Position numbers and translations under genes: made by a program
Shown here: piece after piece, positions 47,292 through 55,085 of the stretch
Layout of the letters: each line of letters begins with the position of its first letter
Position numbering within the stretch: the stretch's first letter is position 1
Notes under the pieces: model-generated
What the model was told of the DNA's origin: nothing
The model's input: the letters and a program-made list of their open reading frames with translations, nothing else
Database searches by the model: none
NCBI GenBank assembly: GCA_051362555.1
Contig: CM120640.1
Location: forward strand, 4,774,001-4,838,000
Reading direction: 5' to 3'
Length of the DNA stretch: 64,000 bases
From: Lingula anatina
Lineage: Eukaryota > Animalia > Brachiopoda

Positions 47292-50200
47292 CTATGATAA
47301 TGCCACATTGTAGTGTCTGTCATCCTCTGCTATCACAGTCACAGTGGGGAACTGATCCCTCATGTCATCTGGGTAATAGGTTATGAAATCTTCAGCACCA
47401 TGTTTGGAAGGCCTTGCTACCTGAATGGTTACACCCAAGGTGTGGGCTAGGAGAAACATTTCAATCTGAAAATACAAAGTATTAAAATTATATCATACAA
47501 GTCTTAATAAGCTTTTCTTGGGGGATAATATGAAACAAATGTAAATGTCATGGTAACATATATAATTTATTAGTTTCAGTTTCCCATACACATGATAAAA
47601 CACAAATAATATCCACATGCCAAATAAACCAACTGAAATTAATTTCTTGGGCAGCAGAAAAAATGGGGTATTTCTTTCAGTTACACTATTTTAAACTGGT
47701 GGCATTTGGTTGGGTTCAATGTGTGCCTCTTAGGAAAATTAGTTGCTGGACCAAAAGTTTGGCCATCTTGAAAAGCAGCTGGCTCGAATGTCTGCCAGGT
47801 GGGAAAACTTCTCAGCCCGTTCTGAAAGTTGTCAGCCATGGGCAGACGGTCCAGCGTTAATTTCTAACAATGGTTGGGTTCAGCAACAATAATTTGATAT
47901 AAGTAATCATTTTATATGCACCTTTAAATTAACTTTTGTTCTTGGAAATATGTAAGAAGAAAATTAGAACAGATAATAACATAAAAGTGAACTTTACTGA
48001 AGATGTGATGTTCTCTCAGAAATGTTCATATAAAAGAAAACAAAATTTGTTCGAAATCCAATTATCAGTTGTGATAGCACATTATTAAATTCATTTTCAA
48101 TGGGGACCACCTATGATAGCTCTATGATGGCTGTGCGTAAAATCCAGAGAGATTTCGTGGGATTTGATGGAGAGAGTGTTAAGAAATAATGGCAAACTAG
48201 AGAGTGCAGTGCCAAAACAAATTAAACTTCACAACAGGTATTTTCAGGGTTTTTTTTAATTCCTGTAGAAAAACAGTCTGTAGCAAAAATGGCATGATTT
48301 CACTGTGTTATGAGTGTTACTTATCTATATTGCATTCTATGACAACATTCCTAGAACATAGGGTTTAACCATTAGCACTTATAGTAAACCCCACCCGCAG
48401 GTTTTCTTGTCTTGTATGACAAGTAATGCCTGTTGTAGTTTGTTTTAGCACTCTTACCTGCTCCAATCCAGCACTGTCACCAACACAGTTTAAATGGTTG
48501 GTCAAAAATGCCTCTGGAGTCTCTGAGGTATCCCTGGCAAACATCAGCCACACAAATGTGGGAACTCCTCCCCCATTCTGATAGTCTCCATACAGCTGAA
48601 TGGCCTTCAACATCATGAGAATTTTCACTGCTTCCATCATACAAATGTCAGAGAAGCAATCTTCGTCATCGTTGAGAATTTTTAAAAGTTTTGACTCTCT
48701 TGCTAGTTCTGTGGCACCATTTTGTGATTCTTCCACCTGTAGGCAAAAAAATTATTGTAAAACAATAAATTTAACATATTAATTTCTAATATAATTAACA
48801 AGATCTTAATGTTTTATTTTCATTTAATGGAGAGGTACACAAAGAAAGAAGAGCACATCTTGCTTTATAGGCGCTAAGAGAATAGAGTATGGGCAAAAGT
48901 CTCAAAGAACAGAAAAGGAAAGATGGAGCAAAGTTTGAATAAAAATCATTTTTCTAGAAAATTTGCCAGAAACAAAATTCTTGAATATTCCTTACAGTGT
49001 GATTTCATAAAACTCCCATGTTAATAAAATAAAGCATGATAATACATGTTATGTACCTGTTTAAAAAATGTCTGTACACAAGTGTGCATAGTAGGCAAGA
49101 AGTCATCCTGGTTCTTAACATGTGGAAGACGGTGTGCGAAAGTCCACTTCTTTGCAATGTAGGGGTGTGTCTCTACAGCAGCATTTTCTAGTGCCTACAA
49201 TAAAAATAGAATCTAATTATACTTCATAATTAAATTATGTAAGTACCTTTGTTTGAATTTGCTTTTATATAATGTCATATGTATTTTGTAAAAGAGCCTG
49301 TAAAATGTAACCTGTACACATTTTAGTGTTCAATAAAGAATTATTATTATTACTATAATATTATAATATTATTATTACTATTATGATATGATATGAATAA
49401 ATAAATGATAAAAATAAAATGAAGATTTTTATATTTTAAAATAAAACTTACAATTCAGCTATATTGGATAATTCCACAGATTAGTAATCAATAAATGCTG
49501 TTGCATTCTGAAATTATCTAATTACCAATATTGTGACATTAATAGGATACAACTTTAGGTCACAATCAGGAATCCTACCTTGGAAAGAGATTTCAGCTTC
49601 CCAATATGTTCTAAGATGGGGACTTTATGGATAATAGCTTGGTAGAGAGCAGCACGTATTGCGCAGTAATTATCTCCACGCACACACCGCATGTGCTTAA
49701 AACCAAGCTGTTCAACTATTGCATGATAGCCCTGAAAATATATGAATATAAACAAATCTATGAATATCAGTTCCATTTAACAGCATGGATGCTTATTTGT
49801 GCATTGCTAGTTGCACTGCAGACCAGCAGGGTAAGCCTGGATATATATGATGCATGCCTACTTGTCAAAACATGGATATACCACATGTTGTTTAAGCACA
49901 TAGCATGTCTATTAAGATAAGGTTGTTTACTGCTTTTTAATTGAGGGAAATGACTCCTGACCACGTAGAATCATATGAATATGGTAATTGCAGGGATTGG
50001 GGGAAAAAATCAACATTTACATATAGTACCATTTTAAGAACTTGTATTGGATCAAGCATTTAGAATCTCAAAAAGCACCCTTCCTGTTACGCCAAGAAAT
50101 GGGGGCATAAATGGGACCCCAAAATGCTGTCTTAATTAAAAACTTTTTTATGTAACATTATGTGGTACAATGTGTAAGGCTTTTAAACAAAATAATGGTG

Positions 50201-53200: not shown

Positions 53201-55085
53201 GGCTCCTGATCACTTGGCTGGAAAAAATACAGGGATCTTAGGTCAATCACAAGACATTGATCATATGCTGTTAGAGGAAGGCAAGTGCATGCTTGTGTAT
53301 AAAGCAACAAATAAAGCAGGCTGAATGACGTTATGAAATCAGCATGGCATATCTTATGCATCTGTGAAAATGAAATGACTAAGGAATTCTTGAAATGAAT
53401 CTCAAACCCTATGATAAGCCATATAGTCAAATTTAAAGTTGGCATCATGGATTATAAATAAATTGGTTTGATGTACCCCTTTCTATCACAGGAATTAACT
53501 GAGCAAGAGAGAGGTAAGCACACATCAATAATAATTAAAAGAGGGGAGCACACATCAATAAATGAAAACAAATATTCAACCACACAAAAGACTGACATTA
53601 AAAACACTGTTTACAAAAAGCTTTCAATAAAGCTGTATATTGAGTATGATGTAAAAGGATATTTTTACATGATATGAAAACATTGCATAAAAACAATCAG
53701 ACAATACAACGAACAAAAAGTGACTGGCTATGACAAGACTTATTATCTTTATGTTTACTTTATTAACATCTCATTAACAAAATATAACATTATAATGGAA
53801 ATCCCAGATTAAAAAGAAATTAACTTCTGGTACTTGGGACATTATATATCGATTTCAATCATGTCTGAAGATTAGATACAGTATAATTCCTGTAACATAC
53901 AATGTAAATGATCAATAGCACAGTTGCCCTCTTCTATGTACAACATAAACAGCTCCTGTTGTATTGTGAAAATGTTACAATATAAATATTTCCCCTTCAT
54001 AAAAGTAAAATATCATGAATCACCTATCACACTCAATTTATTTTGCTCAGTGCAAAGCTTTTTCCAATCAAAATACTAATGAACAAAAACATAACTAATA
54101 CAAGACTGTTATTTGCCCAAAAGGCATACTGATTTAGCAGAATTGGTCTACCAGAGCAGTCAAGCAAGGCAAGTATTATCCAATTGCACCATCAGAGATT
54201 TTAAGCTAAAACATCAACTGTTAGTTAATCAGGTAATCTTTGAAACATTCACAGCCTGCAGGTATGACGAGCACGTACAGAGATATATTTGGCAATGTGC
54301 TGCTAACTTACCTGGTTTTGACGTGTCTCTGTAGAGTTCGATGAATCTGAACTTTTCCTCTTAGTTTTGTCTCCACCAGACACAAACAGCCGGTAGTATA
54401 GCTTGTATACCAACAGTGAGCCTAATCCTAAGCCCAGTCCTAAGCCTAGGAGAGCTAGCAGACTAGTGGCTTTAGCTGAAATGGTTGAAGAGAAATGAAA
54501 ACCATTAGTGTCTACTAATGACAATTTCTCATATTTAATTTCATAATCATAATTGCCAATGCTGAAATGGAACACTTTCTCATCGGAAAGAAGATTTGTC
54601 TATGAGAGAACCTGCACAGCTGATTCAACATGCATTAGTGATTATCAAGCCTGGATAGCAATAGAAGTTAGTCACCAATAGAAGTTACACCATATTGTCT
54701 ACTTTTTCTCTATAAATTCCTCTGATACATATGCCTGTACTTTAGCCGGATAAACCTTGGATGGGGACAAACCAACAGCCAATCTATGTCACAGCAAACG
54801 TTTATGAACAGATCAATCAAAATTTTGCTCAAATTAAAAAAAAAATGTTGAAAACTCCACAGCACTAGTACCTGAGTGAATGTCACCAAGAACATTCTCA
54901 ATACTGAATACAAGAACACAGTCTACATGATCTCCACAAAGCCTGGTTCTGCGAAGAGCATGAAACAAAAGATAGGGTAGCATCCTGCCACTCTGATCTT
55001 TAAAAGAACGCGGCATTGTCACAGTTAGAACCAGTGACTGTGGTGTGCCAAAAGTAAAAGGTGTACCTGGTTTTTCCTCAGTCAT
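47292..55085 (-). CDS. OTULIN: OTULIN/FAM105-family OTU deubiquitinase with N-terminal TM segment and long acidic disordered region (~1149 aa)
   Basis: Phase-consistent exons: 54872-55085, 54312-54475, 51009-53217, 50248-50366, 49579-49731, 49057-49194, 48458-48736, 47292-47465. Motifs: EQEWKGTTKRA, VRGDNYCAIRA (Cys 49663-49665), FARDTS, VGDSAGLEQIEMFLL, AEDDRHYNV. The OTU domain is secure; the N-terminal exons are less certain. Confidence 0.85.

Follow-up and report, generated by a model that had tools for sequence, protein, structure and literature searches.

A long OTULIN of the brachiopod Lingula anatina, with a predicted membrane anchor and a conserved disordered arm, is a candidate kinesin-1 adaptor of the RIC-7 type

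What would a protease of linear (Met1-linked) ubiquitin do with a predicted membrane anchor and a long disordered arm? The question is raised by a gene on the minus strand of the Lingula anatina assembly GCA_051362555.1, within CM120640.1:4,774,001-4,838,000 (the window, that is the whole stretch of 64,000 nucleotides analysed; all coordinates are window-based). This gene is Lingula anatina OTULIN/FAM105 and likely the one invertebrate gene that corresponds to both OTULIN and OTULINL of vertebrates. An earlier note had proposed its product as a candidate autophagy receptor carrying LC3-interacting regions (LIRs). The islands that the arm conserves suggest another function, namely a membrane-tethered kinesin-1 cargo adaptor of the type of Caenorhabditis elegans RIC-7 with a predicted Met1-ubiquitin protease, a reading for which we consider the chances evenly poised.

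The gene comprises seven exons running from 54475 down to 47292 with GT-AG ends, one open frame and both the GDNYC and the HYN motifs:

54312-54475, minus strand: anchor exon, with a predicted single-pass signal anchor at 54390-54464 followed by basic residues; no ATG; RNA depth and joints.
51009-53217, minus strand: long exon (2209 nt), encoding an acidic, Ser/Thr-rich, predicted disordered arm; covered by RNA end to end in 4/4 runs.
50248-50366, minus strand: OTU exon 1, with the equivalents of Tyr91, Glu95 and Trp96 (proximal-ubiquitin site); RNA joint.
49579-49731, minus strand: OTU exon 2, with the catalytic Cys codon at 49663-49665; Pfam C101, E 6e-9; RNA joint.
49057-49194, minus strand: OTU exon 3, matched by loose ends from OTU exon 2 in 4/4 runs.
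48458-48736, minus strand: OTU exon 4; Pfam C101, E 9e-25; within the RefSeq protein.
47292-47465, minus strand: OTU exon 5, with His at 47313-47315, Asn at 47307-47309 and the stop; Pfam C101, E 2e-21; within the RefSeq protein.

The hydrophobic segment is the top 19-mer of the protein by hydrophobicity (Kyte-Doolittle 2.13), and the arm bears a net charge of -72 over 724 residues. AlphaFold gave a predicted local distance difference test score (pLDDT) below 50 across most of residues 1-730, and its confident parts were restricted to the OTU domain and one helix. The RNA evidence consists of raw short reads from four runs (X1, X4, X7 and X9) of three studies labelled as the same species; the reads of two runs were mostly 90-99% alike to the window and so probably derive from another population. 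The joint between the anchor exon and the long exon was found in 3/4 runs (X1, 8 reads and 9 allele-variant reads; X7, 3; X9, 3 (loose ends); none listed in X4), the joint between the long exon and OTU exon 1 in 4/4 runs (1, 4, 6 and 9 reads), and the following two OTU joints in 3/4 and 4/4 runs. The chain is pieced together from short-read joints and not from one molecule, and OTU exons 4 and 5 rest on RefSeq XP_013399362.1. Skipping the anchor exon alone or the long exon alone would lose the frame and skipping both would keep it; no joint skipping either exon was listed among the RNA joints of the four runs. The in-frame splicing of the hydrophobic exon to the 2209-nt exon and then to the OTU exons, as the earlier note had drawn it from the letters, is thus borne out by GT-AG ends, open frame and RNA joints. 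Since these joints lead from anchor through arm to OTU domain, neither anchor nor arm belongs to a separate gene, the outcome that would have spoken against the proposal.

The sole database protein matched by the long exon was XP_013399362.1 of Lingula anatina (1010 aa, Pfam PF16218; 7,987 candidates scored), which shows three residue differences from the window translation; the search therefore supplied no close brachiopod relative for a test of LIR conservation. A second Lingula record (848 aa), with differences at 23 positions, may represent either an allele or a copy of recent origin.

By profile, fold and residues, the OTU domain is a member of peptidase family C101. Pfam PF16218 (C101) scored above its cut-off in three exons, the sequence matched OTULIN in the PDB with E 1e-50, and the AlphaFold model matched OTULIN structures in fold with E 1e-22 and a root mean square deviation of 2.1; identity to vertebrate OTULIN is about 38%. 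The residues tied to catalysis and Met1 specificity are described in the available text of Keusekotten et al. (PMC3690481). The equivalents of Y91, E95, W96, R124, D126, C129, G281, D336, H339 and N341 are kept in Lingula and in 31/31 invertebrates tested, so a Met1-specific deubiquitinase activity is predicted; in Lingula L259 is kept as well, E314 is Asp and TQK is TKR. The likeness to vertebrate OTULIN covers the OTU fold, the Cys-His-Asn triad, the autoinhibitory Asp and the proximal-ubiquitin residues. It ends outside the domain. According to the available parts of PMC7862380, mammalian OTULIN is a soluble protein of 352 aa with a HOIP-binding PUB-interacting motif (PIM) and a PDZ-binding tail, whereas the Lingula protein has a predicted anchor, a 720-aa arm, no PIM match and, in OTU exon 5, no vertebrate-type C-terminal tail. 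The PIM pattern was found in 0/52 invertebrate proteins versus 6/8 fish proteins, although a diverged PIM could be missed.

We then placed the protein in its family. A search with the OTU domain returned 359 proteins of 555-1768 aa at E <=1e-10, and the best 120 of the 359, one per species, were used; among these, long members occur in molluscs, a nemertean, arthropods, hemichordates, tunicates, corals and fish. A pattern search recovered a homologous anchor segment in 36/43 protostome orthologs (one match being spurious); of the seven misses, five are records whose first residue lies at or close to the Met-Gly (MG) described below. A quick tree of 50 OTU domains (midpoint root, one OTULINL row) placed vertebrate OTULIN and OTULINL in one clade (Shimodaira-Hasegawa-like approximate likelihood ratio test, 100) apart from all 31 invertebrate rows; Lingula paired with the nemertean Lineus and fell outside the vertebrate OTULINL branch. 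The anchor counts and the tree thus indicate, at the level of sequence, that invertebrates ordinarily have anchor, arm and intact triad in combination and that this layout is not special to this window. The predicted anchor, the arm and the intact domain therefore stand in one spliced gene, as had been claimed, while the supposed uniqueness of their combination falls away. OTULINL/FAM105A likewise bears an N-terminal predicted membrane motif before the same OTU family (PMC7862380, in the available parts); it differs in having no long arm, its human copy is a pseudo-enzyme, and the two anchors are likened by position and not as homologs. In lungfish, OTULINL combines a hydrophobic segment with an intact triad, in agreement with the available text of PMC5381560.

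The OTULINs of ray-finned fish, sturgeon and lungfish group with vertebrate OTULIN. Many are long, with long acidic arms, and often start with MG-x-x-C(C), which is likely a myristoyl and palmitoyl anchor judging from the motif; they have the PIM and lack the arm motifs of the Lingula type. In Sardina pilchardus many otulin-like records lie on one contig, and the one that was aligned has an altered active site. Among titles and abstract beginnings, the literature gave no account of a long, anchored or myristoylated invertebrate OTULIN, nor of an OTULIN LIR; one work names RIC-7 together with OTULIN.

The 5' end of the gene appears to be variable. A first exon at 54872-55085, implied by the earlier note, has to be given up: RNA depth was 0, 0, 0 and 0.07 (bin 54728-54975), no joint was listed, and, compared with the mollusc pre-anchor peptide, the candidate scored negative and came out at ranks 3 and 6. 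Instead, reads of the anchor exon lead to three upstream donors, at 56325 (4 reads, two runs), 62624 (3 loose ends) and 62986 (5 loose ends), which together with an internal start give the following elements:

62986-63090 (minimal extent, 5' end not mapped), minus strand: exon A, alternative non-coding first exon; donor 62986; 5 loose-end reads in X7.
62624-62653 (minimal extent), minus strand: exon B, alternative non-coding upstream exon; donor 62624; 3 loose-end reads in X1.
56325-56625, minus strand: exon C, coding upstream exon; joint 56325 to 54475 with 3 reads in X7 and 1 in X9.
53104-53178, minus strand: internal start MGNNAS and conserved Tyr..G.V.F hairpin; RefSeq start, MG motif conservation, AlphaFold strands.

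Exon C is in frame with the anchor and extends the protein by up to 100 aa, giving a 1178-aa isoform from the ATG at 56625 (later ATGs are possible). In a junction-anchored score against the pre-anchor peptide of ten molluscs it ranked 1/124 and 1/41 among the open phase-1 donors; an unanchored hidden Markov model of the mollusc pre-anchor region missed it (score -1.2), the top match being an unrelated 35-aa frame. Exons A and B contain no in-frame ATG (in exon A, after the last stop), and neither does the anchor exon; the first in-frame start on these transcripts is therefore MGNNAS in the long exon, where XP_013399362.1 begins. Its ATG has a strong Kozak context and is preceded by one weak out-of-frame ATG. 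A start of the form MG-N/Q/S-x-x-S/T/A is present in 27/28 lophotrochozoan proteins, and the hairpin that follows is modeled as strands 15-17 and 22-24 (pLDDT about 60). MGNNAS fits the N-myristoylation consensus. From these few reads we infer that the first exon chooses between two membrane tethers, a signal anchor and a myristoyl group. In the surrounding DNA, a tRNA-Gln(TTG) at 63254-63328 on the plus strand stands head to head with exon A, about 160-270 bases apart, and an AT dinucleotide repeat of 93 bases (57045-57137) lies upstream of exon C.

The arm itself aligns poorly (mean identity 0.108), and four islands stand out from it: the MG start with the Tyr..G.V.F hairpin, an N-F-S-x-x-S-L stretch, a helix, and a hydrophobic-x-W-[DE] motif. 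The last three are located as follows:

52651-52695, minus strand: N-F-S-x-x-S-L island, better conserved than any other stretch of the arm; mean identity 0.63 versus 0.108 for the arm.
51937-52029, minus strand: predicted heptad-patterned helix opening with KSFEEI; residues 384-414, AlphaFold pLDDT about 85.
51742-51753, minus strand: W-acidic-like F-Q-W-D motif, 90 residues after the helix start; W in 19/23 orthologs.

The N-F-S island was also found in chelicerates and myriapods, and the heptad pattern is kept across lophotrochozoans and arthropods. The conserved tryptophan sits 83-128 residues after the helix in those orthologs that have it. Counted over whole groups, the hydrophobic-x-W-[DE] motif occurs 20 times versus 2.8 expected in 24 lophotrochozoans and 46 times versus 6.1 in 20 arthropods. 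Its strict form, [LM][DE]W[DE] of the LEWD type, was found at the corresponding place in 30/30 arthropods, often in two to three copies; the relaxed form is present in 22/28 lophotrochozoans, mostly as L-S-W-D. The strict arthropod form matches the published W-acidic motif that binds kinesin light chain (KLC), and the SKIP peptide, as these are given in the available parts of PMC5450233 and PMC6214655. There the W-acidic kinesin-1 adaptors (SKIP/PLEKHM2, calsyntenin-1, nesprin-2, gadkin) are described as membrane-attached, with an acid-flanked W, L or M at -2 and a disordered acidic region; none is described in those parts with a deubiquitinase domain. The Lingula protein shares the W, the hydrophobic residue at -2, the acidic residue at +1, the acidic region predicted to be disordered and a predicted membrane location, whereas its motif, like that of molluscs, is the relaxed one with a non-acidic residue at -1. 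Even with the strict motif wanting, we infer that it may act like a W-acidic adaptor.

Beside these islands, mollusc arms have a conserved S-V-L-L-T-P-P-S stretch, of which Lingula has V-L-T-T-P at 52615-52629. The mollusc stretch resembles an Fbw7 phosphodegron.

A profile search of cluster representatives (650 matches at E <=0.001, the best 150 of 650 used) bears on the part played by catalysis. Proteins of Ixodes, the millipede Chamberlinius, the stick insect Bacillus rossius and two more have lost the catalytic Cys and/or His and keep the helix and LEWD, and most of these five also retain the anchor and the N-F-S island; catalytic residues thus appear to have gone more than once among arthropod members with the arm motifs. 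Altered active sites were seen in Limulus, Tubulanus and one further protein. Retention of the arm motifs where catalysis is lost suggests that the arm has a role apart from catalysis, unless these proteins are paralogs of an active copy.

The closest described system is RIC-7. According to the available parts of PMC10932739 and PMC3261915, the transport of mitochondria in worm axons depends essentially on RIC-7, which collects together with kinesin-1 where axonal mitochondria have their leading end (PMC10932739). Its N-terminal region (1-99) targets mitochondria, its disordered region (100-470) is required, and its OTULIN-like C-terminus can be dispensed with (PMC10932739). Human OTULIN and OTULINL fail to rescue RIC-7 (PMC10932739), and its two isoforms differ in their first exon only (PMC3261915). 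In the same parts the authors report no homolog outside nematodes except for the OTULIN-like domain and call the function of the disordered region unclear (PMC10932739, PMC3261915). N-terminal targeting, a long disordered middle, an OTULIN-like C-terminus and first-exon isoforms make up the likeness, and the three-part layout is found in Lingula; a dispensable OTU part is also what catalytic decay in some arthropod relatives suggests. The differences are that RIC-7 is described as nematode-specific, that its mitochondrial binding is partly MIRO-1-dependent, and that Lingula keeps the catalytic residues. RIC-7 is likened here by layout, shared domain and the kinesin-type motif of other ecdysozoans, and was set beside the Lingula protein by description. 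An atlas search outside PF16218 returned otubain clusters only (0.86-0.87).

In the adaptor reading, transcription through exon C would give the signal-anchored form, while on transcripts from exons A or B the anchor exon would stay untranslated, and translation from MGNNAS would yield a myristoylated form. With either tether, arm and OTU domain would reach into the cytosol from an organelle; the analogy with RIC-7 makes mitochondria the most likely one, and the endoplasmic reticulum (ER) is possible. The heptad helix would oligomerise or bind a partner, and the W-acidic motif would engage the tetratricopeptide repeat (TPR) groove of kinesin light chain. The OTU domain would trim linear ubiquitin locally and be dispensable for the function of the arm.

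Several points weigh against this adaptor model. The strict motif occurs in 0/28 lophotrochozoans, and Lingula has F-Q-W-D. Both nemerteans, the closest relatives in the tree, are without the hydrophobic-x-W-[DE] motif, and hemichordates, Ciona, cnidarians and fish have no W motif at this place. The orthologs are interrelated, so that their counts represent only a few lineages, and the catalytically decayed copies may be paralogs. No nematode protein or RIC-7 sequence was among the named matches of the family searches (best rows listed), and the available text of PMC10932739 holds no word starting with 'klc'. The identity of the organelle comes by analogy, the myristoyl isoform from 8 loose-end reads and a motif, and the unmatched PIM of the 52 invertebrate proteins leaves the meeting of the enzyme with LUBAC, the complex that assembles linear ubiquitin chains, unexplained.

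Some of these points favor a different use of the same parts. The protein could be a membrane-tethered Met1 deubiquitinase that serves as a signalling or contact-site scaffold and is, in Lingula, unconnected with motors; the arm would then be a phospho-regulated spacer, and the W motif would bind another partner, such as a coat or adaptor protein. The intact residues of catalysis and Met1 specificity fit this, as do the non-canonical form of the lophotrochozoan W motif and its absence in nemerteans. In the available parts of PMC7862380, moreover, human OTULINL is described as residing at the ER and binding proteins of contact sites, and OTULIN as influencing SNX27 trafficking. We nevertheless find a scaffold somewhat unlikely: in arthropods the exact KLC-type motif persists, often as tandem copies, even in members that have lost catalysis, and RIC-7, the one relative studied genetically, needs its arm and not its OTU domain for kinesin-1 transport (PMC10932739, in the available parts).

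The earlier note's own model was that LIRs in the arm recruit ATG8 and couple it to the editing of Met1 chains. FAM134B, TEX264, RTN3L and FUNDC1 combine an anchor with a long disordered region bearing acid-flanked aromatic-x-x-hydrophobic cores, and their LIRs are known as conserved islands, whereas the cores of Lingula are not conserved in position. The seven LIR-like hexamers do lie where they had been placed, and three of them look good and fall outside the helix:

53065-53082 (SDYDLV), 52951-52968 (GSYEMV) and 52558-52575 (QDFELV), minus strand: three Lingula-specific LIR-like cores; positional conservation 0/23.

Against 10,000 shuffles, the Lingula arm had 12 LIR cores versus 6.5 expected (P 0.02), 4 matches to the xLIR pattern versus 0.8 (P 0.008), and 8 acid-flanked cores versus 2.7 (P 0.004), a modest excess whose P values are uncorrected for the arm having been picked for its cores. 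The named cores are unchanged in the second Lingula record where it covers them, with no difference in QDFELV, DSWSDL, KSFEEI and QWDNI. Conservation as islands did not hold up: none of the lophotrochozoan orthologs (0/23) has SDYDLV, GSYEMV, GEYDSL, QDFELV or DSWSDL at the aligned position, although the poor alignment of the arm gives this test little power for motifs that shift in position. KSFEEI is kept as F-x-x-[LIV] in 13/23 orthologs, with L replacing F in 8 gastropod-type rows; at QWDNI the LIR residue [LIV] at +3 is present in 0/23, so that the conservation of both appears better explained by the predicted helix start and the W-acidic motif. Independently of position, the 27 other lophotrochozoan arms showed no excess of cores outside the helix (83 versus 107.7 expected), and [LIV] at +3 of arm tryptophans was at or below background (0.12 and 0.08 versus 0.16). 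A stricter pattern, written after the sequences had been viewed, gave 5 strong cores versus 0.2 expected in both hemichordate orthologs, 1 in Ciona, 0/2 in nemerteans and 0/4 in cnidarians, and most of its arthropod matches lie inside the helix. LIRs may thus be real in a few lineages, yet they do not appear to be the conserved function of the family; an autophagy receptor, at most lineage-specific and with LIRs turning over in position, is improbable. Hemichordate arms also carry, besides several LIR-like cores, a PIM-like D-I-Y-S-A stretch near the OTU domain.

Last, the anchor exon could be mostly 5' untranslated region and the real product the 1010-aa RefSeq protein, soluble or only lipid-anchored, which would suit the RefSeq start at MGNNAS and the 8/12 upstream-leaving anchor-exon reads that go to exons A and B, but the four reads joining exon C in frame, the match of exon C to the mollusc pre-anchor peptide and the conservation of the anchor as protein from molluscs to insects make this highly improbable.

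Elsewhere in the window, a Nup62-like gene with FG/Thr-rich exons and an Nsp1_C match (E 6e-17) lies downstream on the same strand at about 41100-43500. On the plus strand are a multi-exon gene at about 3200-11900, with a PAN domain (E 4e-7) and, apparently, a hydrophobic segment at the C-terminus, and exon frames at about 20600-26550 that resemble the XPF/ERCC4 nuclease; the three frames tested gave no Pfam match.

Returning to the kinesin-1 adaptor, a wider proposal, tentative and rather unlikely as a whole, is that RIC-7 is a derived form of an ancestral protostome long OTULIN. That ancestor would have been a mitochondrial kinesin-1 adaptor acting through its W-acidic motif, with a promoter-switched transmembrane or myristoyl tether and a protease of linear ubiquitin aboard the moving organelle; vertebrate OTULIN and OTULINL would be its two cut-down halves, and the added LIRs of Lingula could let the arm choose between transport and mitophagy. 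More generally, the long invertebrate OTULINs are candidate counterparts of RIC-7 in molluscs, arthropods and brachiopods. They also suggest that membrane tethering of OTULIN is ancestral, which, if true, would explain why OTULINL has a membrane motif and why the N-termini of fish OTULINs look like lipid anchors.

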